Below, piece after piece: positions 4,453 to 51,024 of a DNA stretch of 64,000 nt. The translations under genes and the position numbers were made by a program. A model generated the notes under the pieces. That model saw nothing but the letters and a program-made list of their open reading frames with translations, did not search any database and was not told the DNA's origin. This DNA comes from Minisyncoccota bacterium (GTDB lineage Bacteria > Patescibacteriota > Minisyncoccia > Phycocordibacterales > UBA9973): contig JBAZSF010000001.1 of NCBI GenBank assembly GCA_041662525.1, positions 105,383 to 169,382 of the forward strand, written 5' to 3'. The stretch's first letter is position 1; every line of letters starts with the position of its first letter.

Positions 4453-5571
4453 TTAAATACCTTCTTTTTTAAGTTCTTCTATAATTTCTCTTGATTTGCG
4501 AGAAAGTTTTGATGGTAATTTGATGTTTAATTTTATTAATAAATCCCCTCTTTTGTTTTTTGCAAAAGGTACTCCTTTGCCACGCACACGTAAAATTTCA
4601 TTTATGGAAACTCCTTCTGGAATCGTTACTTCTATTTCTCCATCTAAAGTTTGGATAGGATATTTAACTCCGAGCAAGGCATCAGAAAGTTTTAAATTTA
4701 AATTCATTACTAGATCATTTCCCTCTCGTTTAAACACAGGATGCGGAGCTACATTTATTTTTATATAAAGATCTCCTGTGGTTCCTTTTGAAACTGCTTC
4801 ACCATAACCCGTCATCCGAATCATCTCACCATCACGGATGCCTGCAGGGATAGCAATAGAAACTTCTTCTTCGCGACGAAGCACTCCTTTGCCTTTGCAT
4901 TTATCACAAATTTCTTTTGGTACTTCACCTGCACCTAAACAAACTTCACAGATTTTTGTACTAGCAATATTGCCAAAAATTGTTCTTTTAGATTCACGAA
5001 TTTTCCCCTGACCATTGCAATGTTTGCAGGTTTCCATTTTAGTTCCAGCTTTCGCACCAGAGCCTCCACATGTCTGACATGTGGAAGTTTTAGTAATTAA
5101 AACTTTTCTAGTTATACCAAAAATAGAATCAGCAAAAGAAATCTGAATCTCGGTGGAAATATCTCTTCCTCGACGTGTTTCTTGTCTTCCTCCTCCCATT
5201 CCACCGCCGAAAAAATCACTAAAAATATCATTGAGATTACCCATATCAAAATCTGCCCCACCGTTTTGGAAACCTGAAAAGTCAAAACCTCCGAAACCTC
5301 CTTGCTGTTGTCCTCCACCATACCCTCCTTGTTGCCCCATATTTTCAAAACCTGATCCATACTGATCATATTTTGAGCGTTTAGTATCATCAGAAAGTAC
5401 TTGATAAGCTTCATTTGCTTGTTTAAATTTTGCTTCATTACCATCTTTTTTATCAGGATGATATTTTTGCGCCAACTTATAAAAAGCCTTCTTTATTTCT
5501 TCTTTGGAGGCAGTTTTATTTACACCTAAAATGTTATAATAGTCTTTGTTCATATGATTTTGCAAAATCAT
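4453..5571 (-). CDS. dnaJ: Chaperone DnaJ (Hsp40)
   Basis: J-domain '[32 protein letters not shown]', Gly/Phe-rich linker, four CxxCxGxG zinc-finger repeats. Only 39 nt downstream of ATPase-1 on the same strand. Confidence 0.95.
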
Positions 5572-5610
5572 GCCGCGTAATTGTCCTTTAAAACGTAGCT
5601 ATTTTGGCTA

Positions 5611-7113
5611 TTATATCATAGGTTCGGCCTCTTGTGAAGTTTTAGTTTTTATTTCAGAATCATCTTCTTTACTCTCTCCTTCCTCACTTGTTTCTTTTGA
5701 TTTTCTTTTAGCTCTTCCTTCAATAATCGCTTTTTCTTCTGCACTTCGAATAATAGTAGCTTCTTCTTCAGCAATGAGTTTCGCCGCATCACCTTTTGGT
5801 ATTGAATATTTCCTACGAGACGATGCTATAACCTCCTCTCTATAAGATGGATGTGTGGGTGGTAGAATTCGTAGAGTTTCCGCAGAAAATGGATCATAGG
5901 ATTCACCATCAATAGTCATTTTAATATAAAATTCTCCAACTGCGAGATTGATCATGTCTTTCACATCAAAAAGTGGCGCAAATTCTGGTTTCATTTTAAC
6001 TGCATCTTCACCACCAATACGAAAAGTAATAACACTTCCACAATTACCAAGCACGGCTTGATGAATTTTAGGTAAAATTTGCCCGACATACTGATGCGCC
6101 ATGGTTAAATTCAGCGCATATTTTCTCGCCTCTGATAAAATATTTTCAAAAGTCTGAGTAACTACATTTTGAAACTCATCTACGTATAAATAAAAGTCTG
6201 TACGATCTTTTTCTGGGATAGCGGCACGCTCCATGCCGGCTTGTTTTATTTTTGTCAAAAACATGGAACCAAGAAATGAAGAATTCTCTTCCCCCAGACG
6301 GCCCTTGGAAAGATTAATTAAAATAATTTTTTGTTCATTCATCAATTTACTAATATCAATCTTATTTTGCTTTTGTCCAAAAATATTTCGAAGCAATGGA
6401 TCAGATAAAAATTGCCCAAGCTTATTTACAAGCGGAATGATCGCGTCAGTGTCGAATTTCTCAGACCAATCAGCGAATTCAATAGCGAAGAATCTTTTAA
6501 CCATGTCATCTGTAATATATTCCACCACCTTCTGTCTGTAATTTCTGTCGGTCAACATTGAGATCATTCCTCGCATCGTAGCGTGCGGATAGTCGAGCAG
6601 GGCCAAACAAGTAAAACGAAAAACGTGTTCTAGGCGTGGTGTCCAGTTTGCTCCGAATTGTTTTTGAAAAACTTCGATCAATCCCTGTGTTAATTGAAAT
6701 TTAAATAATGGATCAACATTTGCTAAAGGATTGAAAGAAGCTGGGAAATCTAAATCTGTAGGGTCGATAATGCAAACATCTTCGATACGTTCTTTTGGGA
6801 TATAATCAAGAATTGCGTTTATTTCATCTCCGTGCGGATCAATCAAACAGATACCATGACCATAGGTAATATCTTGACGCATAAAAAGCTCAAGTAATTT
6901 ACTTTTTCCAACACCGGACTTTCCAATAATATAAAGATGCCTTCGGCGATCTACTCTTTTAATACCAAAAACAAATTTCTTTTCTTCTAATGAAGCGACA
7001 TAATTTGTTCGCCCAATAAAAGAAGCGTCCTCAGGGTTAACTTTACCAAAAACTGGTAATTCTGGTGGTGGTGGTCCGTATTTTATTATTTGCACTCGAT
7101 TCAGCTTGGACAT
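5611..7113 (-). CDS. Soluble TrwB/TraD/VirD4-like (type IV coupling protein family) P-loop ATPase, paralog 1, no TM anchor
   Basis: Walker A 'IGKSGVGKS', then 'LIDPHGDE...IIDPTD' (compare remembered TrwB 'GATGTGKS..VIVDPNGD..IILNPYD'), Walker B 'DFYLYVDEFQNV', 'TMAHQYVGQ'. No N-terminal hydrophobic helices; acidic Ser/Glu-rich C-terminal tail. Confidence 0.65.
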   Translation of the reverse strand: MSKLNRVQIIKYGPPPPELPVFGKVNPEDASFIGRTNYVASLEEKKFVFGIKRVDRRRHLYIIGKSGVGKSKLLELFMRQDITYGHGICLIDPHGDEINAILDYIPKERIEDVCIIDPTDLDFPASFNPLANVDPLFKFQLTQGLIEVFQKQFGANWTPRLEHVFRFTCLALLDYPHATMRGMISMLTDRNYRQKVVEYITDDMVKRFFAIEFADWSEKFDTDAIIPLVNKLGQFLSDPLLRNIFGQKQNKIDISKLMNEQKIILINLSKGRLGEENSSFLGSMFLTKIKQAGMERAAIPEKDRTDFYLYVDEFQNVVTQTFENILSEARKYALNLTMAHQYVGQILPKIHQAVLGNCGSVITFRIGGEDAVKMKPEFAPLFDVKDMINLAVGEFYIKMTIDGESYDPFSAETLRILPPTHPSYREEVIASSRRKYSIPKGDAAKLIAEEEATIIRSAEEKAIIEGRAKRKSKETSEEGESKEDDSEIKTKTSQEAEPMI

Positions 7114-7137: not shown

Positions 7138-8889
7138 CTAGTAAACCTCTTGCTGATAACATTTTTCGCAATACACTATTTCAGGGCGATCGGGAGCATA
7201 GCTCGTCTCAAACTCTATCTCGCACTTACTTGCTCCATGAGAATGATTTGGTTTAGTACACATACAAGACCTATGCCAGAGTTTCATAGGATTACGCATT
7301 TTCAACCTATTTTCATGACGACACAAAAAACATAACCTAGGTAAAGGTACTCCAAGTTTTCGATATAAATTTAATTCATCTATAGTAATTTTATAAGCCC
7401 CTCTACAATAATTACTGAATTTTCCTTTATTTCCACATCCAATAATTTCTTTTGTAATAGAATTTTTAACATCATCTAAATTATCAGGAAAATTTTTTGA
7501 TTCAATTGTTGTTTTATATTCATTTCCTGATCTTTCACGCCATCGATATCCCATTTTAAGTGCCTGTTCCTTCTCTATGGGAAAATAATCTTGTGCCTGA
7601 GTTTCATTGTAGCAAAAAGTAGAAAGTTCACTGGGAAAAAATTCTCCATATTTGTATATAATTCCTCTCTTGTCCACATAGGGTACTTCATTCATTTGTT
7701 CTTTGATTTTTGGAATTAATTTTTCATATTCTTCTTTAAAGTATTGTTTGTTTAAAATACAATATTTTTTATTTCGCACACCAATACAACCAAATAAATT
7801 TGAAGACCCGTGGCAATTAAAAGAATACTCAATATCATTTGAACCATAGATCACACTGCCAAAAAGATTGCGAAAACCGCCTATTCCTGTATCAAATACC
7901 TCATAAAGCATTTCGCCTTCCCCTACTCCAGGCCCAGAATCATAAGCATCTTTAAGACTTTTTACTGACCAATGTGAATATTTTGAATCTTCAATTTGTC
8001 CATTTGCATCAAAACAAATTTTGCAATTTTTTGTACCTTCTAAGTTATCACCTGTTGAATTTACCACCTTTATTTGAACAGCAAAGCGATGCAATGAATT
8101 AAGATATAATTCTTTAAACTTATTTTTAAGTTCTAAAATAGTTTTATAATCTTTAAGATTATATTCAGCTAATTTTCTGTGATATTCTTCCCTAGAAAGC
8201 TGTTCATTCCACATGCAATATGATTTATTGCGCAAATTAGTACAACCAAAACAATCTGTGCATCCTACGCAATCATAAAGAAAATATGAATCTACGCAAC
8301 TTTTACAATTCAGAGAATAAAGTAAATGATAACTGTCCGAACAAATTACATCTTCATAACAAAGCTCAGAACGATTGACAACATATAAATCTGCAGAATC
8401 TTTTGTCCCGGTAATTCTATTAGAATACAAAGTTCTTTCTATTCTCCATGAACCAGAACACATATAGCAGTCCTTGCTAGCTTCTGCGATATTACAATAA
8501 TCGCTATTTGTTGCATTTACATTTGAAAGGGCTTGGAGGGGAATATTATTTCTTAAATTTTTCCACTGTTCAAAAAAAGGTTTAGAAAAATCATATTCTT
8601 TGCCATAAGAAAGCGGATCCCAGCCATCTCCCCACCAAGCATCAGCACAATACACAGTAAGTTTTTCTTCTGGAGGTAAAAAAGAAATAAGCATTTCGTC
8701 ATGACCTGGCGCATCACATTTTCTTTTGAACAAAGACATCTCGTTACGCCAAGTTATACGTCTGATAGTTCTGCATTCCGGACAAAAAGTCGGAGGTGGA
8801 ACTTTCATCTTTTTATAAAAGTTAAAATCCTCTAGTTCGATGACAAAGTCTTGTTTACAATTTTGGCAATTTTTAGTTTCAGAATTCAT
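7138..8889 (-). CDS. Cysteine-rich (~33 Cys) internally duplicated zinc-ribbon protein, paralog 1 of a 3-member family of unknown function
   Basis: 583 aa. N-terminal ribbon 'CQNCKQDF..FNFYKKMKVPPPTFCPECR' and homologous C-terminal module 'LNLYRKLGVPLPRLCFLCR'. Two central Cys clusters each ending 'CFGC..LRNK.YC..N.Q.S.EEY'. Start is 1 nt after the ATPase-2 stop. Confidence 0.6.
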   Translation of the reverse strand: MNSETKNCQNCKQDFVIELEDFNFYKKMKVPPPTFCPECRTIRRITWRNEMSLFKRKCDAPGHDEMLISFLPPEEKLTVYCADAWWGDGWDPLSYGKEYDFSKPFFEQWKNLRNNIPLQALSNVNATNSDYCNIAEASKDCYMCSGSWRIERTLYSNRITGTKDSADLYVVNRSELCYEDVICSDSYHLLYSLNCKSCVDSYFLYDCVGCTDCFGCTNLRNKSYCMWNEQLSREEYHRKLAEYNLKDYKTILELKNKFKELYLNSLHRFAVQIKVVNSTGDNLEGTKNCKICFDANGQIEDSKYSHWSVKSLKDAYDSGPGVGEGEMLYEVFDTGIGGFRNLFGSVIYGSNDIEYSFNCHGSSNLFGCIGVRNKKYCILNKQYFKEEYEKLIPKIKEQMNEVPYVDKRGIIYKYGEFFPSELSTFCYNETQAQDYFPIEKEQALKMGYRWRERSGNEYKTTIESKNFPDNLDDVKNSITKEIIGCGNKGKFSNYCRGAYKITIDELNLYRKLGVPLPRLCFLCRHENRLKMRNPMKLWHRSCMCTKPNHSHGASKCEIEFETSYAPDRPEIVYCEKCYQQEVY

Positions 8890-13626: not shown

Positions 13627-15351
13627 CTAATAAATTTCTTGTTGATAACAACGTTCACAGTAAACTATTTCTGGTCGATCTGGCGCGTAACTAGTCTCAA
13701 ATTCTACTTCACATTTTTGTGTGCCATGTATGTGATTTTTTTTATCACACATACATTGCCTACGAAAAAAAAGAGGTAAATTTCGTAAGGTTAAACGTTC
13801 ATAATGCCGACAATTAATGCAAAAACGCGGTAATGGAAGATTCATTCTTTTTAAAAAATCAAGTTCTGATTTGATTATGCGAAAAGCCCCGGTGCATTCG
13901 TGTTCACAAGACTCATCGTGTGCACATTGAATAGCCTGATTAAGTATGTCATCACTTACATCATTGATATTATCTAAGATGTCTTTATTTTTTAAAGTAA
14001 ATTTATAATTTTGTTTTGTAGTTTCGTACCACGAAAACCCTTTCCTCTTTGCATCTTCTTTACCCAATGGAAAAAATTCGTAAGCAGTAGTTGCTTTGTA
14101 TGGAAAAAAAGAAAATTCACTTGGGAAAAATTCTCCATATTCTTTTGCTTGTTTCATATGTTCAATTATTTTGGGCACTAATTTTACATATTCTTCTTTT
14201 GTGTACTGTTTATTAAAAATACAATATTGCTTATTTCGAAGCGAAACACATCCAAAAAGATCTGATGAATTACTGCAAAAAACACAATAAGTTAAATTTT
14301 TTACATTTGTATAACAATAAGCACTAAATTTTATATTTGATCCCCCATTTCCAACAATAAGACTTTCGTAAATAAGTTCTACATTTTCTCCATAATTTGA
14401 ATAATCATAGCAATCCTTTACAGGTCCCATTAAAATATTTTGGACAAATTTGCTATCTTCCACCATCCTTACACGAAAACAATATTTTGCATTCTTAGAC
14501 CCATAAACATAATCACCAGAAACATTCACATTTTGACGATCGTGAATATATTTTTGCGGGTAATCAAGCCAATGTTTATATACCTCATCTTTTAATACTC
14601 TTAAGGCTTTATTAGAACCTAAATTTAATTCTTTAATATTTTTTAAATAATCTTCTCTAGAATATTGTTTATTAAAAATGCAATATGATTTATTGCGAAG
14701 ATTAATTGAACCAAAACAACTATTGCATCCAATACAATCTTTACACAAAATCATTTCCTGACAACTCTCACAATCAACAGAAAAAAATGTTTTATAACAA
14801 GCTGTAGTATTAATATTTCCATAACTCAATTCACATTGATTTGTCATATGGCTATCAAAGCATTGTTTAGAACCCTTATCCCAAATTAAATATGCAGAAT
14901 CTTCCGCATAAGAGACTCCTCCTCGAACCAAATAACAATTTTTTACATCATGCACATTAGTGCAATAGTAACAATTCACTAAATTATACATAGAATGCGC
15001 AGGTAGTGGCACCCTTAAAAGTAAACTTTTAAACTGTTCGAAAAATGTTTTTGTAAAATCAAAATCACGAGCATACTCAAGTGGATTCCAGGCATCAGAA
15101 ATCCAATAATCTCGATCATATATTTTATAAGGACTTTCTTCGGGAAAAAGTGAAAAAATTTCTTTTCCACCAAGAGCTTCCTTTTTCTTAAATAAATGCC
15201 AATCATTACGCCAGGCCATTCTTCGCTGCATCCTGCATTCCGGACAAAAAGTAGGCGGAGGTACTTTTATCTTTTCATAAAAATTAAAATCCTCCGGCTC
15301 TATGACAAATTCTTTCTTACAATTTTGGCAATTTTTTGTTTCAGATTTCAT
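13627..15351 (-). CDS. Cysteine-rich internally duplicated zinc-ribbon protein, paralog 2
   Basis: 574 aa. First ~45 and last ~30 residues are almost identical to paralog 1 ('MKSETKNCQNCKKEFVIEPEDFNFYEKIKVPPPTFCPECR' and 'KCEVEFETSYAPDRPEIVYCERCYQQEIY'); middle region divergent. Confidence 0.6.
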   Translation of the reverse strand: MKSETKNCQNCKKEFVIEPEDFNFYEKIKVPPPTFCPECRMQRRMAWRNDWHLFKKKEALGGKEIFSLFPEESPYKIYDRDYWISDAWNPLEYARDFDFTKTFFEQFKSLLLRVPLPAHSMYNLVNCYYCTNVHDVKNCYLVRGGVSYAEDSAYLIWDKGSKQCFDSHMTNQCELSYGNINTTACYKTFFSVDCESCQEMILCKDCIGCNSCFGSINLRNKSYCIFNKQYSREDYLKNIKELNLGSNKALRVLKDEVYKHWLDYPQKYIHDRQNVNVSGDYVYGSKNAKYCFRVRMVEDSKFVQNILMGPVKDCYDYSNYGENVELIYESLIVGNGGSNIKFSAYCYTNVKNLTYCVFCSNSSDLFGCVSLRNKQYCIFNKQYTKEEYVKLVPKIIEHMKQAKEYGEFFPSEFSFFPYKATTAYEFFPLGKEDAKRKGFSWYETTKQNYKFTLKNKDILDNINDVSDDILNQAIQCAHDESCEHECTGAFRIIKSELDFLKRMNLPLPRFCINCRHYERLTLRNLPLFFRRQCMCDKKNHIHGTQKCEVEFETSYAPDRPEIVYCERCYQQEIY

Positions 15352-15408: not shown

Positions 15409-17097
15409 TTAATTTATATTTTGCTTGTAACATTCTTCACAGGCGATTTTTTGATATCCCCATTCTGGTAAATAATACGCTTCAATATCTTTTTTACAAT
15501 AAAAACATTTATATGAATACGCTTGCAAAACAGTTAAATATTTTAAACTATTTTTTATTCTCACATCAAAATGATAACGCGGGAGCGGTATATTATTTTC
15601 TTTATAAAAAGAAAGTTCATTTTGGGCAATATTAAAACGCCAACCTGTTTCTGGGCATAAAAGTGCCTGAGTGATAATAGTATCCGAAACATCTTTCACA
15701 TCATCAGGAAGTTCGTTTGTAGGCATCCCATCTGTCTGACCTTCTGTTGTATCTTCCCAATAACCACCAATCTTTAGCATATCTTCTTTTTTTGTGTTTG
15801 GAAAATAAAAAAACCCAGTAGAGAAATTAAATGGTCCAAGACTCATGGAATAAGGCAAAAATTTTCCATACTCACCTCTTTTTTTCATATCAGAAATAAT
15901 CTCATCCCGTAATTTTTCATATTCCTCTTTAGAATACTGCTTATTTAAAATACAATATTTCTTTTTCCTCAAACCCACACAACCAAAACAATATTCACAC
16001 TCAATACATAAATCTAAATATTCGGAATATCTAGAAGAAGACCAGCTAGAATATTTGAGAGCATAACCGCTGGGTTGGCAAGAACTACAATTCCCTGATA
16101 TTTCTAAATCCTGACAGCCGGTAATATCAATACAAGATTCCAATCCTCTACCCCTAATACAATTAGAACAATCTTCGGATTCTGAAATCGTAAAACAATT
16201 ATGACAATTTTTACAATCCAATAAATAATCTCCAAAAGAATTATGAACTTTTAAATTAAAATTAGGTCTATGCACTACTTCTTCTTGAACTATTTCTTCA
16301 AAATGTTTTTTATGCTTTTGGATAGAATCATAGGAACCAAGTTGAAATGATTTGATTTTTTTATCATATTCTTCTTTGGAGTATTGAACATTTTCTATGC
16401 AAAAAGATTTATTGCGAAGATTCCAGCACATAAAACAATCCTGACAATTCCGACAGTCATATAAAAAGTAAGAATTTATGCAATCTCGAGAATGTTTAGA
16501 GTAAAAAAGTTTATAAGAATGATGGCACTCAGAAGAGTCAAAACATTTTTCACTATTGTAACAAACTATCACATCAATAGAATTTTTTACATTGATGTTT
16601 CTATATGAATAAAATAAGTTTTCACAATCCACCATAGAACGTGAAAGATAACTATCTTTACAACTCCAAACATCATCGCACCAATCACATCCTGTGCTTT
16701 TACTACCATCTTGATGCGGACGAGGCACTTTTTCTTGGAGATTTTTTAATTGCTCAAAAAATGTTTTTTTCTCATCGTAATCTTCTCCATAATTCATTGC
16801 ATCCCATTTATCGCTGTACCATTCAGAAAGAGTGTAGATTGGATATCTGCTATTCTCCGGCAAAACTGTAATCAAACTTTCTCCAGAAAGATCAGATTTA
16901 CCTTTGCGAAATTTTCCAAATACCCAAAAAGACAAGTGCAATTTTACCCGACAGAAAAAACAAAGTGTCGGCAACTCTATATCAACTTTTTTATATAAAG
17001 ATAATTCTCCTTCTGTAATTAAAAAATTATTTCCACAATGCTCACAAATATTAGTTTGTTGGTTCTTTGTATTCATATACATTGACCCTCGCGGCAC
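15409..17097 (-). CDS. Cysteine-rich internally duplicated zinc-ribbon protein, paralog 3 (most divergent; start codon ambiguous, overlaps grpE 3' end)
   Basis: 562 aa. N-terminal 'CEHCGNNFLITEGELSLYKKVDIELPTLCFFCR', central 'CRNCQDCFMCWNLRNKSFC', 'CFGCVGLRKKKYCILNKQYSKEEY', C-terminal 'CFYCKK...CEECYKQ'. Alternative starts: MYMNT at 17082 or MNT at 17076. Confidence 0.55.
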   Translation of the reverse strand: MPRGSMYMNTKNQQTNICEHCGNNFLITEGELSLYKKVDIELPTLCFFCRVKLHLSFWVFGKFRKGKSDLSGESLITVLPENSRYPIYTLSEWYSDKWDAMNYGEDYDEKKTFFEQLKNLQEKVPRPHQDGSKSTGCDWCDDVWSCKDSYLSRSMVDCENLFYSYRNINVKNSIDVIVCYNSEKCFDSSECHHSYKLFYSKHSRDCINSYFLYDCRNCQDCFMCWNLRNKSFCIENVQYSKEEYDKKIKSFQLGSYDSIQKHKKHFEEIVQEEVVHRPNFNLKVHNSFGDYLLDCKNCHNCFTISESEDCSNCIRGRGLESCIDITGCQDLEISGNCSSCQPSGYALKYSSWSSSRYSEYLDLCIECEYCFGCVGLRKKKYCILNKQYSKEEYEKLRDEIISDMKKRGEYGKFLPYSMSLGPFNFSTGFFYFPNTKKEDMLKIGGYWEDTTEGQTDGMPTNELPDDVKDVSDTIITQALLCPETGWRFNIAQNELSFYKENNIPLPRYHFDVRIKNSLKYLTVLQAYSYKCFYCKKDIEAYYLPEWGYQKIACEECYKQNIN

Positions 17098-24467: not shown

Positions 24468-24486
24468 GTAATAATTATAACAACAA

Positions 24487-24554
24487 ACGAGGAGCATAAA
24501 CAAGTTTATTTGTTTAATGTCCGAGTGCCGTTGTTATATGGTAATCCATATAGC
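24487..24554. promoter_or_regulatory. Conserved ~70-bp promoter/operator module, copy 1: 18-bp palindrome TATATGG-N4-CCATATA plus AAACAA..TTGTTT palindrome, then TATAAT just upstream of the pilM/ftsA-like gene
   Basis: Near-identical to 39620-39688 upstream of clpB (sequences compared directly). Confidence 0.55.
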
Positions 24555-30791: not shown

Positions 30792-31823
30792 TTACGCTAT
30801 AGAGTAAAGCCCTTTTTTGTCCTTCTTAAAATATTTTGAATTAGCAAGATTTACCAAAATAGTATTTTTTTTGAAGTATCTTTCTTTCATAACTCTTTTG
30901 ATTATTTCATCCTTTGACAATGGCTCTCCTTCTTTTTTAAGAATGTCCTGTATTACTTCACGAGCAATACCTGCCTTATATCCCCATTCAGCAAGAGCAT
31001 ATATTCCCCTGCCAACTAAAATGAATCGGGAATCTTTGATGAGTTCGTTGTGACAAGTGGCGTAATGTATTTTCTTACCAAAAGTTTTAGAAATAGAATC
31101 TGCCACTTCTTTAAAATGCATTGGGGAACCATGGCGTCTCATCACTAGAAAAGCATAATCTTTCACTCCACGAGTGCGAATGTTTGGCGAAGAAGCCTTA
31201 CCCCATTCTCCTAATTCATTTTTTGAAATAGTTTTAGAAATAGAAAGCCATCTTTTTGCCATCTCTGTATCTCTATATTTCTCGGAAACATCTTTCATTT
31301 GGTCAAAAAATCTCTTAATCATTTCTGTTTCTGGGATAAGATCTTCATCCTTTAAACTTATATAAAGTTTTCGAAGAGCTTCGTGAACTTTTTCAGCCAT
31401 ATCATCATCTACACTATAACGAGTATGAAAATGTTCATCTTCACGATGTTTTTTAAAAACATCAGCTAGTACTAAGAAAAAATTAACATGATTTTGAGTA
31501 TTTTTATCTTTAGAAATATAAGGCAAAAATTCATGTTCAGCAACAATAGATCCTAGATTGTGCACTATTTGTTTTAATTCATCAAAAACAGCCTGCTCAT
31601 TTTTGTAGGCATCAGACTTTTTAATAAGATTAATAGCTGCCTCTTCAACTTGACGAACACGTTCTCTTGTAATTTTATATTTTTTCCCAATCTCTTCGAG
31701 AGTCTTTTTCTTTCCATCAGCAGTTAGACCAAAACGGTTCATTACGACGTCTAGAGTACGACTAGGTAAATGCGATGTTATTCTTTTAGTTATTTTTTGA
31801 GGTTTAAAAGTTATTGTTGCCAT
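30792..31823 (-). CDS. DNA-binding protein with N-terminal sigma-70 region-4-like HTH and C-terminal HARE-HTH-like domain
   Basis: 'TLEEIGKKYKITRERVRQVEEAAINLI' (sigma r4 pattern) and 'MRRHGSPMHFKEVADSI...HNELIKDSRFILVGRGIYALAEWGY' (HARE-HTH pattern). Confidence 0.45.
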   Translation of the reverse strand: MATITFKPQKITKRITSHLPSRTLDVVMNRFGLTADGKKKTLEEIGKKYKITRERVRQVEEAAINLIKKSDAYKNEQAVFDELKQIVHNLGSIVAEHEFLPYISKDKNTQNHVNFFLVLADVFKKHREDEHFHTRYSVDDDMAEKVHEALRKLYISLKDEDLIPETEMIKRFFDQMKDVSEKYRDTEMAKRWLSISKTISKNELGEWGKASSPNIRTRGVKDYAFLVMRRHGSPMHFKEVADSISKTFGKKIHYATCHNELIKDSRFILVGRGIYALAEWGYKAGIAREVIQDILKKEGEPLSKDEIIKRVMKERYFKKNTILVNLANSKYFKKDKKGLYSIA

Positions 31824-36846: not shown

Positions 36847-39579
36847 TTAAACCGAAGATCGAGATCGCACACGAATTGAGCTTTTTATTTTTCTTGCCCG
36901 TCCTCCGGCGGGGCCTTTTTTTGTTTCAACAACAATTTCGTTATTTTTCTCAGAAACAAATACAGTGTCCCCTTTGGATACTTTGTTTGAAATAATATAA
37001 GACGCAACTGAATTCAAAATCTTATTCTGAATCAAACGGTTCAGTGGTCTCGCTCCATAATGTGGGTTATATCCTTCTTTTGCTAAATAAGAAAGTGCTC
37101 CATCAGAAATCTCAAAATTTATTCCTTTGGCTTTCAGACGATCAACTACAACCTTGATACGCAAATTGACTATTTCTTTTAGAGCAATTTCCGACAAAAC
37201 ATCAAAGACAATAATCTCATCTAAGCGATTCAAAAATTCTGGACGAAAATTATCTTTTAACGCTTCTGTCACTTTTTCTTTCATACTACCATAATCTTGT
37301 TTTTGAGAATTATTAGAAAATCCAATTGATTCCATCTTTTCTACAAATTGTGAACCGATATTAGAAGTCAAAATTATAATAGTATTTTTGAAATTTACTA
37401 CTCTTCCTTTACCATCAGTCAGTCGCCCTTCATCAATAACCTGCAGAAGCATGTTAAAAACTTCTGGATGAGCTTTTTCAATTTCATCAAAGAGAATCAC
37501 CGCATATGGACGATGCCGAACAGCTTCAGTCAATTGACCAGCCTCATCGTATCCCACATATCCTGGCGGAGACCCAATGAGCTTGGACATAGAATGTCTC
37601 TCTGTATATTCAGACATATCCACCCGAATAATCGCACTCTCATCATTAAACATAAATTGCCCAAGTGCCTTTGTGAGTTCAGTCTTACCGACACCTGATG
37701 GACCTAGAAAAATAAAAGAACCGATTGGTCGATTTGGATCTCCGATACCAGCACGAGAACGACGAATAACATCAGCCACGCGCCCGATAGCAGCGTCCTG
37801 ACCCACCACTCTCTTTTTTAGTTCAACCTCCATCTTTTCAAGCTTTTCACGTTCTTCTTCAAGCATCTTTGTGAGTGGTATTCCCGTCCAACGAGCCACC
37901 ACCTCGGCGATATCTTCAGCAGTGATTTCTTCTTTTAAAATTCTACGAGATTTTTGCAATTTCTTTAATCGTGCGAGTTTTATATCGAGCTCTTTCTGAA
38001 GGGTAGGTATTTTCCCATAACGTAATTCAGCAGCTAAAGTAAGATCCGCTTTCATTTCTGCATCTTCGGCTTCCAAACGAATACTTTCGAGTTCTTTCTT
38101 AATACCTCTGATTTCTAATACGATTGTTTTTTCGTTCTGCCATTTTAATTCCAATTCTTTTGTCTTCTCAGACAAATTACCTATTTCTTTGTCTATTTCT
38201 TTAATTCTATTTTTTATTTCATTATTTTTTCCTTGTACTTTTTCTTTTTGTTTTTCTTCTCCACTCGAAGAACTGATCTCTTTTTTGAGAGCTTCTTTTT
38301 CGATTTCTAAACGCATTGTTTTTTTGTTCGCATCTTCTAAAATCGGTGGCTTATTTTCAAGCATTATCTTTAATGAAGAAGAAGCTTCATCAATCAAGTC
38401 CACAGCTTTGTCTGGTAAAAATCTGTTTGTAATATAACGAGAAGACAGATTGACCGCAGACACGATAGCATCATCAGTAATTCTGATACCATGGAAAAGT
38501 TCATACTTTTCTTTAAGCCCACGAAGAATTGTAATGGTATCTTCTATGCTAGGTTCATCGATATAAACAGGCTGGAAACGGCGTGCTAATGCAGGGTCTT
38601 TCTCAATATGTTTTTGATATTCTCGCAAGGTAGTGGCGCCAATAGCTCGAAGTTCTCCACGAGAAAGCGCTGGCTTCAACATATTTGAAGCATCCATTGT
38701 GCCTTCGGCTCCGCCTGCACCGACAATAGTGTGGATCTCATCAATAAAAAGAATTATTTTTCCAGCAGATCGTTCGATCTCTTTCATAATGCCTTTCAAT
38801 CTTTCTTCAAATTCTCCACGGTATTTTGTACCGGCCACAAGCATTCCTAAATCAAGAGAAACAATTTCTTTATCTTTTAAAGATTCAGGAACATTATTTT
38901 TTGCAATCAATTGGGCTAGCCCTTCCACTACAGCAGTTTTTCCAGTCCCCGCCTCCCCTATCAAAATAGGATTATTTTTTGTTCGACGTGAGAGAATCTG
39001 CATTATGCGAGTGATTTCACTATCCCGACCAATGACTGGATCTAATTTATCTTCTTTAGCCAACTTTGTTAAATTGCGAGTATATTTTACCAATAATTTA
39101 AATTTCTTTGGCTCGGAAACATCTGTGATATTTTGACTACGGAGTTCTCCTAAAACTTTCATTACTTGATCTTTGTGAATCCTAAATCTAGCCAAAGTCT
39201 CACGTGCTTCACTTGTGACTTCGAGAATTGAGATAAAGAGATGTTCTGTTGAAACAAAATCATCTTTCATAAACTCTGCCAGTTTAGCTGACTGTTCTAT
39301 AACTTGTGCTAAATCAGGATTGAGATAAATCTGATACGAAGGTGAGATGGTGCTACGTGCTTCTGGTAATTCAATTAATTCTAAAACAGAATCAGTCAAA
39401 AGCATTGTATCGATTTCCAATTTATCTAAAATAGAGTTCACCATAGATTCCTCTTGTAGTAAAAGTGCACCGAGCAAATGCAATGAAGAAACATGGTTCA
39501 TACCACGTTCGATAGCCAGCTCATGGGCTTTTTTAATGGCATCTTTGGCTTTAGTTGTAAATTTATTTAATGGTGGCAT
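36847..39579 (-). CDS. clpB: ClpB disaggregase (two AAA+ modules with coiled-coil middle domain)
   Basis: Clp-N repeats, Walker A 'GEAGTGKT' and 'GPSGVGKT', long coiled-coil M domain between NBD1 and NBD2, 910 aa. Confidence 0.9.
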
Positions 39580-39619
39580 ATTTTTTTAATTTAAATTATA
39601 TATTTATATTATAGCAATA

Positions 39620-39688
39620 AATGAGGAGCAGAAACAAATTTATTTGTTTAATGTCCGAATGTAGTTGCTATATGGTAATCCATATACA
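39620..39688. promoter_or_regulatory. Conserved ~70-bp promoter/operator module, copy 2, upstream of clpB (TATATGG-N4-CCATATA palindrome at 39669-39686)
   Basis: aatgaggagcagaaacaaatttatttgtttaatgtccgaatgtagttgctatatggtaatccatata is ~85% identical to 24487-24554; followed on the minus strand by a TATAAT-like box and the clpB ATG. Confidence 0.55.
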
Positions 39689-47251: not shown

Positions 47252-47548
47252 TTACCTCAATTGCACTTTACTATTCTTTGGATCTATTTGATCTGATATT
47301 CCTAAAGTATTCAATACAATACTGAGAATAGTCCAAACTCCCATCATAATAGTAATACCGATAATTCCCCAGATCATATGACTTTTACCAGTTGTCTTTT
47401 TCTCTTCATTTTCTTGATTGGAAAGAAATTCAAACATTCCATAAAGAAAATACACAATAGCTAAAGCAAAAAGAAGTCCGATAAGTGGGTTTATGATCAT
47501 GTTATCAACATTCCGAATAAATTCATTTAAGCTAGTGGCTTGAAACAT
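47252..47548 (-). CDS. VirB2/TrbC-like (T4SS pilin-type) small membrane protein, no cleavable signal peptide
   Basis: Two hydrophobic helices separated by a charged loop 'SNQENEEKKTTGKSHMIWGIIGITIMMGVW'; same module as four neighbouring genes. Confidence 0.45.
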   Translation of the reverse strand: MFQATSLNEFIRNVDNMIINPLIGLLFALAIVYFLYGMFEFLSNQENEEKKTTGKSHMIWGIIGITIMMGVWTILSIVLNTLGISDQIDPKNSKVQLR

Positions 47549-47592
47549 AAACTATTTTTGTAGACAAAAAATCCATATTATAATTTAATTTA

Positions 47593-47976
47593 TTACTGTT
47601 GTATTGTCGGCAAAATAATACTTGAATCATTAGTCCCTGTAAGATTAAAAGTATTAGTTAAAATATTTACAAGCCCCCACAAAGCTACAATAACAGCTAA
47701 ACCAATAACGCCGTAAATTATTCTGTCTCTACCTTTTGACTTTGCTTCTTCATCATCAGAGATTACATAACTGACAACTCCCCACACAAAGAAAACTACT
47801 GCTAAAGCAATTAAAACTGGAACAACAGCATTAAGAAGCTGACCAATTTTACATAATACTCCTCCTAAATTTTCAATTGGTCCTGCATTACAAGTAGCAC
47901 CAGTAGTAGCTGCTAATGCAGCAATAGGCATAAAGCTTAAAACAAAACCTGACAATACAATTAATTTCTTTTTCAT
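47593..47976 (-). CDS. VirB2/TrbC-like pilin-type protein (signal peptide + 2 TM with charged loop)
   Basis: 'MKKKLIVLSGFVLSFMPIAALAA', two Cys in the mature N-terminus, 'VVFFVWGVVSYVISDDEEAKSKGRDRIIYGVIGLAVIVALWGLVNIL'. Confidence 0.5.
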   Translation of the reverse strand: MKKKLIVLSGFVLSFMPIAALAATTGATCNAGPIENLGGVLCKIGQLLNAVVPVLIALAVVFFVWGVVSYVISDDEEAKSKGRDRIIYGVIGLAVIVALWGLVNILTNTFNLTGTNDSSIILPTIQQ

Positions 47977-47978
47977 AA

Positions 47979-48040
47979 TTGATTTTACGAAATCATGTCG
48001 CGCAATCGTCCATTAAAGCGCGACTTAAACTAATAATAAA
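47979..48040. promoter_or_regulatory. Conserved 5' leader/promoter element of pilin-like genes, copy 1 (contains GTCGCGC...GCGCGAC inverted repeat ~25 nt upstream of ATG)
   Basis: ttgattttacgaaatcatgtcgcgcaatcgtccattaaagcgcgac... is ~90% identical to 49691-49755. Confidence 0.6.
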
Positions 48041-48107
48041 AGCGACCTTATAATAATAAACTAATAATGTTCTTTAATTATACCCCCTCCAAAAAATCAA
48101 AGCAAAT

Positions 48108-48917
48108 TTATTGAGGAGGAATAACTTTTGGAAGAACGTTCATGCCACTAATACCAAAAGTACTTCCCAATATTCCTACTAATCCCCAGACAGACAACAT
48201 CACTGCCAAGGCAATAATCCCCCAGATCATAAATTGCTTGCCTTGTTCCCTCTTTGCCTCTTCATCAGCATTAATAATAAAAAATTGCACTACACCCCAA
48301 ACAAACATCACGGTAGCTAAAGCAAAAATCAAAGGAATAATTGAATCATTGATAATTTTAGTGATATAACACAATACATCTTGAAATTTTGGTTCACCAG
48401 CGAGACTGCAAGTGGTGCCATTCCCCCCAGTCACAGCTAAAGTAGAAATAGATGGAGGAGTAGCGCCACTAAGACCGAAAGTATTTACGACAATATTCAC
48501 TAAACCCCACAAACCAACGACAACCGCAAAGCCGATAATACCGTAAATTATCCTGTCTTTCCCTTTTTCCTTTGCCGCTTCTTCGTCAGAGATGACGTAT
48601 TGCACTACCCCCCAGACAAAATAAACCACTCCCAAAGCAATCAAAACTGGAAGAATAGAATTTAGAAGTTGCTTTAATTGACATATTATTTTTCCAAGAC
48701 CAGTTAAAGCATTACAAGATGAAGACAATTGTCCTGATGGTATACATGGTTGATTTGTAGCTATATTAGTTATAGGATCCACGATACAAGATTCATTAGG
48801 ATTAGGTACAGAAGCGTGAATTCCAAAAATTGGAATAAATAACCCAAAAAGTATAACTAATATAGTAATACCAAAACTAAATTTAAATATTTTTTTCTTC
48901 ATAAATTTACAATGCAA
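48108..48917 (-). CDS. Tandem-fused double pilin-like protein (two VirB2-like modules in one polypeptide); start probably MKKKIF at 48902
   Basis: Module 1 '...VLIALGVVYFVWGVVQYVISDEEAAKEKGKDRIIYGIIGFAVVVGLWGLVNIV'; module 2 '...LIFALATVMFVWGVVQFFIINADEEAKREQGKQFMIWGIIALAVMLSVWGLVGIL'. Confidence 0.5.
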   Translation of the reverse strand: MHCKFMKKKIFKFSFGITILVILFGLFIPIFGIHASVPNPNESCIVDPITNIATNQPCIPSGQLSSSCNALTGLGKIICQLKQLLNSILPVLIALGVVYFVWGVVQYVISDEEAAKEKGKDRIIYGIIGFAVVVGLWGLVNIVVNTFGLSGATPPSISTLAVTGGNGTTCSLAGEPKFQDVLCYITKIINDSIIPLIFALATVMFVWGVVQFFIINADEEAKREQGKQFMIWGIIALAVMLSVWGLVGILGSTFGISGMNVLPKVIPPQ

Positions 48918-49272
48918 GCACTGTCGCTGATATCATTTTAGCGATAGCCCATGATCCTAATAATATTCCTGCACCGACTATAGTCCAAGTAAGAGCGTCT
49001 TTGGCTTTGGTAATTGCTTCTGGATTACCTCTCGCCGACACAAAAAGAAAACCACAGTAAATAATAGCTAGAGCTATGATAGGTATGCTGATTTTTAGCG
49101 CACCTTCTAAGATAGTTTGAATAAGGCCTGGAATTGAAGTAAAACGACCTTCTCCTAATGGATTAACAATTTTGCCTTGAGTAGGATCAGAATTGGGACC
49201 ATCAGCAAAAGAAATAATAGGAACGATAAACACATAAACAATTAAAACTAATTTCTGCCAATTTTTTTTCAT
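48907..49272 (-). CDS. VirB2/TrbC-like pilin-type protein (start trimmed to MKKNWQKL signal peptide)
   Basis: 'MKKNWQKLVLIVYVFIVPIISFA' then 'IPIIALAIIYCGFLFVSARGNPEAITKAKDALTWTIVGAGILLGSWAIAKMI'. Confidence 0.5.
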   Translation of the reverse strand: MKKNWQKLVLIVYVFIVPIISFADGPNSDPTQGKIVNPLGEGRFTSIPGLIQTILEGALKISIPIIALAIIYCGFLFVSARGNPEAITKAKDALTWTIVGAGILLGSWAIAKMISATVLAL

Positions 49273-49288
49273 AAAATTTATAATTATA

Positions 49289-49690
49289 TTATATACCATC
49301 TGATAAAGGATTAAAACCAAGCCAACTACCTTCATAACCCAAGATTGATAATACTGTCCGAATAATTAAAAAAGCAGCTACCGCGATGATCAACCCAAAG
49401 ACTGCATTAAAAAAGATACCTTTTGCTTTTGTTCTAGCGCCTGCTACCTCCCCACCTGCTGTTATTAAAAGAAAACCAGCATAAGCAAACATTATAGCTG
49501 CTATAGGTATAACCAGATTAAAAAGAATAAAATGAATGACTTTATTTATTAGTGCCATAAAGGCATTAAAGTCACAAAGTTTTTCAGCTGAATTATCACA
49601 GGGAACTAAACCATCTGCTAAAGAAAGAGCTGGCACGATAAGAATTAAAAATATTAAGATTGAGATTATAATTTTTTTTGTTTTTTGCAT
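49289..49690 (-). CDS. VirB2/TrbC-like pilin-type protein
   Basis: Signal peptide 'ILIFLILIVPALSLA', 2 Cys, 'IPIAAIMFAYAGFLLITAGGEVAGARTKAKGIFFNAVFGLIIAVAAFLII'. Confidence 0.5.
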   Translation of the reverse strand: MQKTKKIIISILIFLILIVPALSLADGLVPCDNSAEKLCDFNAFMALINKVIHFILFNLVIPIAAIMFAYAGFLLITAGGEVAGARTKAKGIFFNAVFGLIIAVAAFLIIRTVLSILGYEGSWLGFNPLSDGI

Positions 49691-49755
49691 TTGATTTTAC
49701 GAAATCATGTCGCGCAATCGTCCACTAAAGCGTGACGCTATTTAAATAATAAAAG
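49691..49755. promoter_or_regulatory. Conserved 5' leader/promoter element of pilin-like genes, copy 2 (overlaps 3' end of the solute-binding-protein gene)
   Basis: ttgattttacgaaatcatgtcgcgcaatcgtccactaaagcgtgacg... matches 47979-48040. Confidence 0.6.
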
Positions 49756-51024
49756 ACTCAATTTGGTGTTTGCATCTTTGATCGCATCTGCTACCGACAT
49801 ATTGTTAGAAATCACTGCATTGATCATTTCACTAAAAATAGTATCAGTATTTTTAGATGCTGGGTCAAGCCAACTCTTTGCATATAGTGCTGAATCGTAA
49901 AAAATAGGAGAGTATGCATCTTGTGGTTTAATAGCAAGCAAATCTCTGCGTGCGGGAGGCATACCTGTTACCGTCGAAAATTTTGAAGCAAAATCCCCCG
50001 TAGCCATCAAGCTCGCAGCGAGAAAAGCTGTGCTGATATTTTTAGAAAAAGAAGAAATAGCAACTCCGGTCACTCTGGCTCCAGTTACTTTAGCAGTAGA
50101 ATTCTTAATTTGAGGCATAGGGGCAACAAAGAAATTTTGATTAGGATTTCTTTTTACCATAGATTGAAGTTCAGATGCATATCCAAAGTAGAAAGCTAAA
50201 TCCTCCCTTGAAAAAGCGTCATTGGAATTTGGGAAAGATCTATTCCAGGAATACACTGCATTGTTTGGATTGGCAAAATCTGTATAGAATTTTAACATTG
50301 AAGGAAGGTTAAAGCTTCCAATAGACGAACCTAAAGTCGAACTCAAAACTCCATCTTTTTCTTTTACTATAGGGTTACCTGCCTGCATAAAAAGAGTAGC
50401 GAGTATGTCTTTGAAATGAACTATGTTTGAAGAATATCCAAATGCTAATGCGCTTTTTGTTATTTTGTTTGAATCATCTTTTTTGGTAAGAGTAGGCACG
50501 ATATTTACCATCTCTTCCCAAGAAGATGGAGGATAAATAATTCCATTTGCATCAAGGATGCTCCTATTGTAATACATCATAAGCGGATCAATAGAGATTG
50601 GGAAAGCTAAAATACCGCTACCAGTTAGAAACACTTCTCCCGCGCCTGCAAAATTATTCTTAAATGAGGTCAAAGAATAACTCTGATACGGAATAGTAAA
50701 AATTTTATTAGTGTAATGAAAAACTAAATCATCAGACAAGAAAAACATATCTGGTCCTGTCCCAGAAGCAGAAGCTTCTAGTAGGTCTTGGTCAAAAGTG
50801 TCGGCAGATTTTTGTACATAAGTGACAACAAAAGTAGGATTAGCATTATTAAAATCCCTCATTACGTTAGATATTGTTGCATTTGGTACTGTTCCCCATA
50901 AAACTACTTTACCGAGACTCCCTGTACTAGTCTTCCCGACTGGGATTGCGCCAGAAAAAACCAAAACACCCAAAATAGCTGCAGCAATAAATATAACCAA
51001 AAAGATTATTTGAAAATTCTTCAT
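49738..51024 (-). CDS. Extracellular solute-binding protein (ABC-transporter SBP family 1-like), N-terminally membrane-anchored
   Basis: N-terminal TM 'IIFLVIFIAAAILGVLVF', 428 aa; weak family-level call. Confidence 0.45.
   Translation of the reverse strand: MKNFQIIFLVIFIAAAILGVLVFSGAIPVGKTSTGSLGKVVLWGTVPNATISNVMRDFNNANPTFVVTYVQKSADTFDQDLLEASASGTGPDMFFLSDDLVFHYTNKIFTIPYQSYSLTSFKNNFAGAGEVFLTGSGILAFPISIDPLMMYYNRSILDANGIIYPPSSWEEMVNIVPTLTKKDDSNKITKSALAFGYSSNIVHFKDILATLFMQAGNPIVKEKDGVLSSTLGSSIGSFNLPSMLKFYTDFANPNNAVYSWNRSFPNSNDAFSREDLAFYFGYASELQSMVKRNPNQNFFVAPMPQIKNSTAKVTGARVTGVAISSFSKNISTAFLAASLMATGDFASKFSTVTGMPPARRDLLAIKPQDAYSPIFYDSALYAKSWLDPASKNTDTIFSEMINAVISNNMSVADAIKDANTKLSLLLFK

Follow-up and report, generated by a model that had tools for sequence, protein, structure and literature searches.

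A clade-specific cassette of two covarying hairpins before start codons in Candidatus Nomurabacteria and relatives, and its possible role as an mRNA leader

The DNA considered here, below called the window, is a stretch of 64,000 nucleotides from a Minisyncoccota bacterium (GenBank assembly GCA_041662525.1, contig JBAZSF010000001.1, positions 105,383 to 169,382). A cluster of five paralogous genes for pilins of the type IV secretion system (T4SS)/TrbC type is located at positions 47252-49690 of the window, and two of these genes are directly preceded by near-identical copies of an element of about 50 nt, which we refer to as the cassette (copies c1 and c2). The genes around both repeats are all located on the minus strand, and all layouts are read in that orientation (Table 1). 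We can state with high confidence that c1 and c2 belong to a clade-specific family of such cassettes, which, in ultra-small bacteria from groundwater (Candidatus Nomurabacteria and relatives), are located before many unrelated genes that mostly code for abundant proteins. More tentatively, at somewhat less than an even chance, we suggest from the sequence comparisons that the cassette is a copy-and-paste, self-folding mRNA leader that would act on translation initiation in a host almost without Shine-Dalgarno (SD) sequences.

The duplication noted in a preliminary description of this DNA is real. The 47-nt cores of c1 and c2, from hairpin 1 through the end of hairpin 2, are identical at 45 of the 47 positions, with two differences, and the copies share an exact 32-mer for which the chance expectation was 0 in 100 shuffles. 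As described, each copy is located directly 5' of a pilin start, with both downstream genes matching PF18895 (the c2 gene weakly), and neither copy contains an SD sequence. The latter is yet a window-wide trait, since an SD-like motif was identified in only 6 of the 61 genes in the window. Many of the window genes instead have an extended -10 element (TGnTAnnnT) 6-9 nt 5' of the ATG, as in genes with leaderless mRNAs. The reported overlap of c2 with the 3' end of the gene for a solute-binding protein (SBP) concerns only the AT-rich flank, and hairpin 1 begins 2 nt past the stop codon. Three features had been missed: hairpin 2 beside the ATG, a third and diverged copy, c3, in front of dnaJ, and the pilin paralogues that have no cassette, which are three of the five in the cluster. 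The pilin locus of c1 was also retrieved from an ENA assembly, and the cassette was present at each of three orthologues of the c2 pilin gene (in L010, L061, and L159; loci outside the window are given L numbers).

The family extends far beyond the window. When one genome per species was scanned for the exact pattern, 51 loci were obtained, 47 of which were true copies, nearly all of them in genomes assigned to Candidatus (Ca.) Nomurabacteria, Paceibacterota or Patescibacteria. A looser pattern returned at least 120 loci from metagenomes, including at least about 95 true copies, and covariance-model searches of the flanks revealed extra copies that were invisible to the patterns. Altogether, at least about 140 further copies were identified in metagenome-assembled genomes of Ca. 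Nomurabacteria/Paceibacteria and in metagenomes; these counts rest on pattern matches plus covariance-model matches, and the totals are lower bounds. Six pattern matches in phage contigs were all due to chance, and none contained hairpin 1. A search of the whole window against Rfam 15 identified five tRNAs only and no family for the cassette, and the c1 region gave at E<=10 four chance matches of 13-15 bits, compared to thresholds of 45-100. A tRNA-like or known-ribozyme identity was rejected, there being no Rfam match to such families. In the literature, we found no described leader or repeat of this type from the Candidate Phyla Radiation (CPR).

The proteins encoded downstream of the cassette, the identities of which were confirmed by Pfam, include the ribosomal proteins S5, S12, S14, S18, S19, L2, L11, L24, and L35, and for translation also EF-Tu, the ribosome recycling factor, and the Tyr- and Arg-tRNA synthetases. 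Genes for RNA metabolism, transcription, and secretion (PNPase, RpoC, RpoD, SecY, and SecE) and for protein folding (DnaK, DnaJ, GrpE, and cyclophilin) were also preceded by a copy, as were those for RecA, CTP synthase, H+-pyrophosphatase, superoxide dismutase, glycolytic enzymes, an R3H-domain protein, type IV pilin-like proteins, and T4SS-type pilins. The T4SS-type pilins are the biggest single host family, with 18 of the 123 unique copies, and the link to pilins is an enrichment, not a specificity. In two loci (L089:72-135 and L118), the cassette was located before a conserved lysine-rich open reading frame (ORF) of about 20 codons (MAKGNSHPKKEAKKPKKAKK / MAKGDGHRKEKKKPKKVKAK), which may encode an unannotated small protein.

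The preliminary description had proposed a shared promoter, operator or RNA leader for coordinated control of the pilin paralogues. A structured leader element at the 5' side of the genes is what stood of this proposal, whereas the restriction to pilins did not. The occurrence of copies at many unrelated loci had been named in advance as the outcome that would argue against it, and the search for further copies gave at least about 140 loci at many unrelated genes. It is true that c1 and c2 precede pilin genes, that pilins are the commonest host family, and that both hairpins are palindromic, as would suit an operator on DNA to which a dimeric regulator binds. However, c3 is located at dnaJ, more than 100 copies were found at unrelated genes, and three of the five pilin paralogues in the cluster have no copy. 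Furthermore, the arms of hairpin 1 change together (UA in 81 copies and CG in 48 at pair 2, with only 10 mixed), unlike the independent half-site preferences of an operator. We consider a pilin-specific control element of any of these kinds hardly credible.

The consensus of the family reads (A)AUAGC GYCGCGC UUUAAUGGACGRUU GCGCGRC A UGAUUU CGYN AAAUCA N AUG. It consists of a 7-bp GC hairpin 1 with a loop of 13-14 nt that contains GGACGRUU, a single A, and a 6-bp AU hairpin 2 with a CGYN loop, which spans positions -18 to -2 relative to the start. The inverted repeat that was first described corresponds to hairpin 1 and proved to be meaningful: compensatory changes were observed at all seven pairs, and 94% of the cells pair; the c2 repeat has one A.C mismatch. 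Hairpin 2 was near-invariant in the copies selected by pattern, whereas 5 of its 6 pairs covaried in copies found by the model without the search pattern, as in CGUUUU/AAAACG, UGGUUU/AAACCA, and UGAUUC/GAAUCG. The check for covariation in related genomes, suggested at the outset, is positive for both helices. None of 500 shuffles attained the observed values, and sliding the partners removed the signal. On this comparative evidence, the cassette helices are shown to be kept by selection. The calculated stability was about -11 kcal/mol for hairpin 1, and -3.3 at 37 C and -6.8 at 15 C for hairpin 2. No pairing of the variable half of the loop with the start region of each gene was detected in a permutation test. 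As to complementarity with 16S rRNA, the 1.1 Mb of flanking sequence contained no 16S gene.

A further covariation connects the two loops. The G of GACGRUU and the first base of loop 2 were GC in 123 copies, AU in 9, GU in 3, and AC in 3 (Fisher p=1e-9), and the AU cases came from nine gene contexts and seven stem variants. Together with an adjacent invariant C:G, this pair is predicted to form a loop-loop contact of 2-3 bp. The same covariation could equally reflect an alternative helix between ACGR and UCGY that would compete with both hairpins. The guanidine-II (mini-ykkC) riboswitch is similar in that two small hairpins precede the start site and their loops contact each other via C-G pairs of ACGR, and loop 1 of the cassette always contained ACGR (ACGA in 101 copies and ACGG in 37). 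However, loop 2 of the cassette is (U)CGY, loop 1 is 13-14 nt long and not a tetraloop, the downstream genes are unrelated to guanidine, and there was no match in Rfam. With about 20 invariant nucleotides, the predicted fold is compact and pseudoknot-like.

The position of the cassette relative to the downstream gene is narrowly defined. Its 3' end was 1 nt from the ATG in 43 of the 58 scored copies (74%) and within 0-3 nt in about 88%, while the distance was 5-12 nt in 12%. About 97% of the copies were in the sense orientation and adjacent to a start, none were seen between convergent genes, and an ORF start on the same strand was absent after only about 5 of about 150 copies. The 5' edge is often located 0-10 nt past the stop codon of a co-oriented upstream gene, and a UAG is often situated within the element, with a TAG on the left flank in only about 55% of the copies. 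The approximately 5 exceptions were a tandem orphan pair, an orphan after fusA, a copy in a GC-richer contig, and a copy read in frame in trmD. The tandem pair (L037:257-396, which is the same as L086:10236-10375) has no downstream ORF. The copy after fusA (L048:1160-1260) is directly followed at its 3' side by an intrinsic terminator, at a place where relatives have tuf. The cassette in the trmD gene (L134:570-636) is nearly intact and lengthens the protein by about 18 residues (KISSANRTVARHDFAKSK), which are located between conserved TrmD motifs.

At least 12 loci have an intact extended -10 promoter 5-8 nt 5' of hairpin 1, from which transcription would start at or near the first base of this hairpin. 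The upstream promoters were kept in filled and empty orthologues alike, for example TGGTATGAT at the SBP gene. The putative promoter 5' of c1 would yield a leader of about 95 nt that contains c1; it was missed by the consensus scan since the -35 box matches at only 3 of 6 positions, and an extended -10 is kept at the same position in orthologous pilin loci (L042: TGGTATAAT). Because functional-looking promoters are located upstream, the cassette would be transcribed as part of the mRNA leader. With upstream promoters and helices that show compensatory changes, it has the general features of a structured, cis-acting mRNA leader.

In the S12 and S19 loci, the cassette was preceded by a full sigma-70-type promoter and by a small hairpin that has a U tract. 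More generally, the leaders of the genes for S12 (L084, L101, L140, L157, L149, and L069) and S19 (L024, L102, L162, L165, L084, and L016) contained their own sigma-70-type promoter, followed by a conserved hairpin (e.g. GAGUC-UUCG-GACUC), the U tract, and the start codon or a cassette. This hairpin covaries between loci and could be an attenuator or a 5' stabiliser.

The upstream promoters also bear on the idea that the cassette is itself a portable promoter, for example of an extracytoplasmic function (ECF)-like type (GGAC-N18-CGT), in which case transcription would start at the A of the ATG and hairpin 1 might terminate or insulate upstream transcription. The loop contains a GAC/TTGAC-like motif, a CG is located 18 nt downstream and about 11 nt before the ATG, and the fixed distance to the ATG would suit a leaderless transcription start. 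Moreover, near-identical upstream regions before non-homologous genes, also across genera, have been described as putative mobile promoters (PMC3575422). However, intact sigma-70-type promoters are situated just 5' of many copies and in the S12 and S19 leaders, the cassette has no internal -35/-10 pair at 16-18 bp, and the TAAAAT is only 3-4 nt from the ATG. This putative -10 is part of a covarying helix and can become CGTTTT/AAAACG. An internal promoter, whether of the sigma-70, sigma-54 or ECF-like type, was rejected on these grounds, its spacings being a misfit, and we regard the cassette as very unlikely to be a portable promoter. The promoter/operator part of the preliminary description is accordingly disfavoured, also because the arms covary as base pairs.

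A function as an intrinsic terminator was also rejected. A scan of positions 47400-50000 called zero terminator-like sites, the loop has 13-14 nt, the tail is AUGAUUU, and many copies are promoter-proximal, so that efficient termination at their 5' end would cut short the mRNA of the very gene that they precede. Two candidate mini-ORFs were likewise dismissed. An antisense mini-ORF (M[SP]RN[RC]PLKR.. on the plus strand) showed third-codon-like variation and was rejected because the compensatory stem variants alter its peptide (L032 and L042). The internal mini-ORF AUG AUU UCG UAA was considered as a coupling device, and no in-frame enrichment was observed among the stop-less variants. The internal AUG was fused in frame in 53 copies, followed by a stop 5-13 nt (mostly 6) before the ATG in 45, overlapping in 7, and out of frame in 14.

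To what extent the cassette is a stable part of its host genes can be read from relatives with 82% to 98% protein identity, in which orthologous starts were either filled or empty for the genes for S5, S12, S19, L2, SecY, SBP, and DnaK. Counting decayed copies as empty, the start was filled in 5 and empty in 2 relatives for S12, in 4 and 1 for S5, in 4 and 3 for S19, in 1 and 2 for L2, and in 1 and 3 for SecY. The SBP start is empty in the window and filled in the orthologues L071 and L113, and the DnaK start is empty in the window and filled in other contigs. Excision of the cassette, as judged from the comparison of filled and empty alleles, returned the usual -10-N6-9-ATG spacing, and the empty L23/L2 junction is an overlapping TAATG. 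The cassette is gained and lost as a unit.

These patterns would suit a selfish, small mobile repeat of the same type as mycobacterial interspersed repetitive units (MIRUs), the repetitive extragenic palindromic (REP) sequences or the miniature inverted-repeat transposable elements (MITEs). The hairpins would then serve transposition, for example as single-stranded DNA, and without a function for the host, copies would survive only at harmless sites, that is, in sense orientation directly before start codons. We consider this the main rival explanation, although a rather unlikely one. In its favour are the filled and empty orthologous sites, the spacing that returns upon removal, the lack of a G.U bias on the sense strand, the nested, in-frame, and orphan or tandem copies, and other palindromic inserts at the same type of site. 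For MIRUs, too, insertions at start codons have been reported, with minimal impact (PMC12548453).

The nested copies were found in two loci (L064:801-900 and L150:2632-2728), where a full diverged copy with both hairpins is located inside the loop of another copy, directly 5' of GACGRUU. The two loci have the same nested architecture and very different sequences, which reflects either self-insertion or a three-hairpin variant. The L150 copy is followed by a terminator and then by no ORF, and has the appearance of a small RNA. A further two long perfect palindromes were identified between the genes of the ribosomal-protein operon in L029 (L029:2466-2526 and L029:6053-6105). The first, of 61 nt, is located between the genes for L14 and L24, and the second, of 44 nt (GTAGATAGCGC...GCGCTATCTAC), is situated at the exact site of the cassette before secY in L045. 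The latter starts with GTAG, ends with CTAC, and has AUAGCGC..UUUAG in common with the cassette. In the comparison of SecY starts, a fourth relative has a different palindrome at the same place.

Several observations argue against a purely selfish repeat. Filled orthologues were 88% to 100% identical in the cassette, whereas the fourfold sites of the adjacent coding sequences were saturated, with identities of 0.32-0.49. Because the retained copies are near-identical while the adjacent fourfold sites are saturated, the cassette appears to be under constraint in place, with the caveat that decayed copies would have entered this comparison as empty sites, and the constraint is position-specific. 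About 97% of the copies are in the sense orientation next to a start, with none seen where genes converge. The cassette lacks terminal inverted repeats and a conserved flank, and a clear target duplication is also absent. Its two ends, UAGCGYCGCG... and ...CGYAAAAUCA, do not form an inverted repeat, and no consistent duplication was seen between filled and empty sites, unlike what defines a MITE. A tblastn search for an IS200-type TnpA found nothing in 1.1 Mb of flanks, which is a weak test. Finally, the internal mini-ORF lacks coupling of the MIRU type.

Described repeat families share some features with the cassette and differ in others. MIRUs are similar by description: both are short dispersed repeats between co-oriented genes, MIRUs are described as mobile, and their host is also rich in leaderless genes. 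Like MIRUs, the cassette has the same orientation as the genes, is located at start codons or in the gaps between cistrons, and shows presence/absence polymorphism at orthologous sites. However, MIRUs have an internal ORF coupled at -4 nt to the downstream start and occur in tandem arrays, whereas the cassette is uncoupled, its copies are single, it consists of two covarying hairpins and a loop-loop pair, and the phyla are unrelated. The REP/BIME/REPIN repeats, associated with RAYT transposases, are also short, GC-rich, multi-copy palindromes that are co-transcribed, show compensatory stem variation, and form long-lived sequence populations. They are mostly located after genes, in both orientations and often as inverted pairs, unlike the cassette, which abuts start codons and is about 97% sense; no RAYT was seen in the 1.1 Mb of flanks with the IS200 TnpA query, again a weak test.

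The Correia, ERIC, and BOX elements and the putative mobile promoters share with the cassette a near-identical upstream sequence before non-homologous genes and can alter the expression of neighbours. They are 100-150 bp long with terminal inverted repeats, or carry promoters, whereas the cassette has about 50 nt and a fixed distance of 1 nt to the ATG, and lacks both terminal inverted repeats and an internal sigma-70-type promoter. The Rickettsia palindromic elements are similar to the trmD copy in being palindromic repeats read in frame in a coding gene, although insertion into genes is the rule there and the exception for the cassette (1 of about 150).

Our preferred interpretation remains that of an mRNA leader. 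In a host with leaderless-type promoters and almost no SD sequences, the cassette would be a self-contained leader or operator for translation initiation. Hairpin 1 would cap the 5' end and keep both upstream RNA and terminating ribosomes away from the start region, and the weak hairpin 2, when docked, would set the exposure of the AU-rich 18 nt before the AUG. A trans-acting factor, which could be a protein, the ribosome or an RNase, may recognise the invariant nucleotides of the loop and helices, and this recognition would set or co-regulate how much is made of abundant proteins, among them pilins, ribosomal proteins, EF-Tu, and chaperones. The cassette would spread by rare copy-and-paste events and be kept where it is useful or harmless.

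Several findings weigh against this interpretation. The trans-acting factor is hypothetical. The cassette is dispensable, with empty starts in close relatives, and some of the empty sites resemble deletion remnants. Some of the copies resemble mobile DNA, in that they are in frame in trmD (L134), nested (L064 and L150) or orphans. Single-sequence folding z-scores were unremarkable (-0.4 to -1.8), and the conservation figures are inflated by ascertainment, since the copies were found by a sequence pattern or by a model built from them. The counts of mismatches are a further point. On the sense strand, the non-Watson-Crick cells of hairpin 1 were A.C in 36 cases, 19 of them at pair 4, as compared to 20 of G.U, and an assignment of the strand by these counts revealed no sense-strand G.U bias in hairpin 1. 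At pair 4, the A.C mismatch was found in 19 of 141 copies, including c2 and c3, with one or two G.U, and compensation goes to A-U. The excess of A.C is the opposite of what is expected for a purely sense-RNA helix and weakens that reading.

The fixed 3' boundary, mostly 1 nt from the ATG, is also consistent with a punctuation or processing signal, in which a structure-specific RNase or the RNA itself would cut at the 3' edge and set free an mRNA with its 5' end at or beside the AUG, to allow leaderless translation of the downstream gene, internal cistrons included. The leaderless-type promoters of a host with almost no SD sequences fit this idea, as does the tolerance of insertions in a TAATG-type overlapping junction (L23/L2) and at leaderless starts. 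The strict sense orientation and the conservation in situ would be expected if loss of the cut abolished expression, and a compact pseudoknot-like fold with about 20 invariant nucleotides is of the kind that such a signal could have. Yet no known ribozyme or RNase-substrate family was matched even at E<=10, 12% of the copies are 5-12 nt from the ATG, and the in-frame trmD copy would mean that an essential mRNA is cut. We think such a processing signal quite improbable.

A broader proposal, which we regard as unlikely though somewhat less so, is that the cassette represents a novel portable leader module for organisms without SD sequences. It would either be cut at the 3' edge, by itself or by an RNase, to give leaderless mRNAs, or be the handle of a translational regulon. 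Cutting at such an edge has an analogy in the tRNA punctuation of mitochondria. The regulon would resemble, by analogy only, that of the 5' terminal oligopyrimidine (TOP) motif of eukaryotic mRNAs for ribosomal proteins and elongation factors, where one 5'-terminal leader element is shared by mRNAs for the translation apparatus. One factor would then control ribosomal proteins, EF-Tu, chaperones, and pilins in ultra-small bacteria, although the TOP motif differs in domain of life, sequence, and mechanism.

Table 1. Cassette copies in the window, their parts, and the associated genes and promoters (all coordinates are positions in the window)
Feature	Position	Strand	Details
Cassette copy c1	47977..48024	-	covariance model 80.1 bits, E=3e-15
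c1 hairpin 1	48024-47997	-	GTCGCGC-N14-GCGCGAC; 5' arm 48024-48018, 3' arm 48003-47997
c1 hairpin 1 loop	48017-48004	-	UUUAAUGGACGAUU
c1 linker A	47996	-	
c1 hairpin 2	47995-47980	-	UGAUUU-CGUA-AAAUCA; arms 47995-47990 / 47985-47980, loop 47989-47986
c1 spacer AUU	47979-47977	-	ATG at 47976-47974
T4SS-type pilin gene 3' of c1, 127 aa	47593..47976	-	PF18895, E=1e-12
Sigma-70-like promoter 5' of c1	48077..48105	-	TTGCTT 48105-48100, 17-bp spacer, TATAAT 48082-48077; read from sequence
Cassette copy c2	49691..49740	-	covariance model 84.7 bits
c2 5' edge, UAG	49740-49738	-	SBP stop codon, then C
c2 hairpin 1	49736-49709	-	GUCACGC...GCGCGAC, one A.C mismatch at pair 4
c2 linker A	49708	-	
c2 hairpin 2	49707-49692	-	then A at 49691, ATG at 49690-49688
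T4SS/TrbC-like pilin gene 3' of c2, 133 aa	49289..49690	-	PF18895 2e-5, PF04956 1e-3, both weak
SBP gene 5' of c2	49738..51024	-	PF01547
Two T4SS-pilin paralogues between c2 and c1	48108-48902, 48907-49272	-	neither with cassette
Cassette copy c3, diverged	5554..5602	-	repeat search and covariance model, 68 bits, E=2e-12
c3 5' edge UAG, C; hairpin 1	5599-5572	-	GCUACGU...ACGCGGC
c3 linker A (5571); hairpin 2	5570-5555	-	UGAUUU-UGCA-AAAUCA; then U 5554
dnaJ start ATG, 3' of c3	5553-5551	-	product has DnaJ domains
Extended -10 5' of c3	5618-5610	-	TGATATAAT

Other features of the window were noted as well. A gene for a VirD4/TraG-like coupling protein (5611-7113) adjoins dnaJ, and together with the pilin cluster it represents parts of a type IV secretion-like apparatus that is encoded in a CPR genome. 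Three paralogous genes for cysteine-rich proteins with CxxC repeats (7138-8889, 13627-15351, and 15409-17082) represent the largest families of direct repeats; they have no cassette in the window, and homologues with a cassette were found in L093 and L104. A gene at 30792-31823 encodes a protein of 343 aa with a sigma-70 region 4 and a HARE-HTH domain, an unusual sigma-like architecture. A second duplicated upstream region of 79 nt was identified on the minus strand at 24474-24552 and 39608-39686, with 89% identity between the copies. It contains the palindromes TATATGG-ATTA-CCATATA and AAACAA-N6-TTGTTT, and has an extended -10 at the 3' end (TGTTATAAT / TGCTATAAT). One copy is located 5' of clpB (start at 39579) and the other 5' of a gene for an actin/FtsA-like ATPase, the true start of which is probably the ATG 6 nt past the -10. 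This region may be a shared promoter and operator of the heat-shock type.

The CPR bacteria are uncultured, and to our knowledge almost nothing is known of how they control the expression of their genes. One cassette of about 50 nt, kept across many species, marks the starts of the most abundant components of the cell in a host nearly devoid of SD sequences, and under either reading, as mRNA leader or as selfish DNA, it is currently missed by gene callers and by catalogues of RNA motifs. If it is selfish DNA, it would be the first described family of dispersed repeats in the group, with a start-codon niche that parallels that of the MIRUs in the unrelated phylum of the mycobacteria. If it acts on mRNA, it would offer a testable route into the start of translation and its coordination in CPR bacteria, and a compact, context-independent leader of interest for engineering. 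The cassette is a previously undescribed element, and the chance that it represents a new RNA device is a real one.

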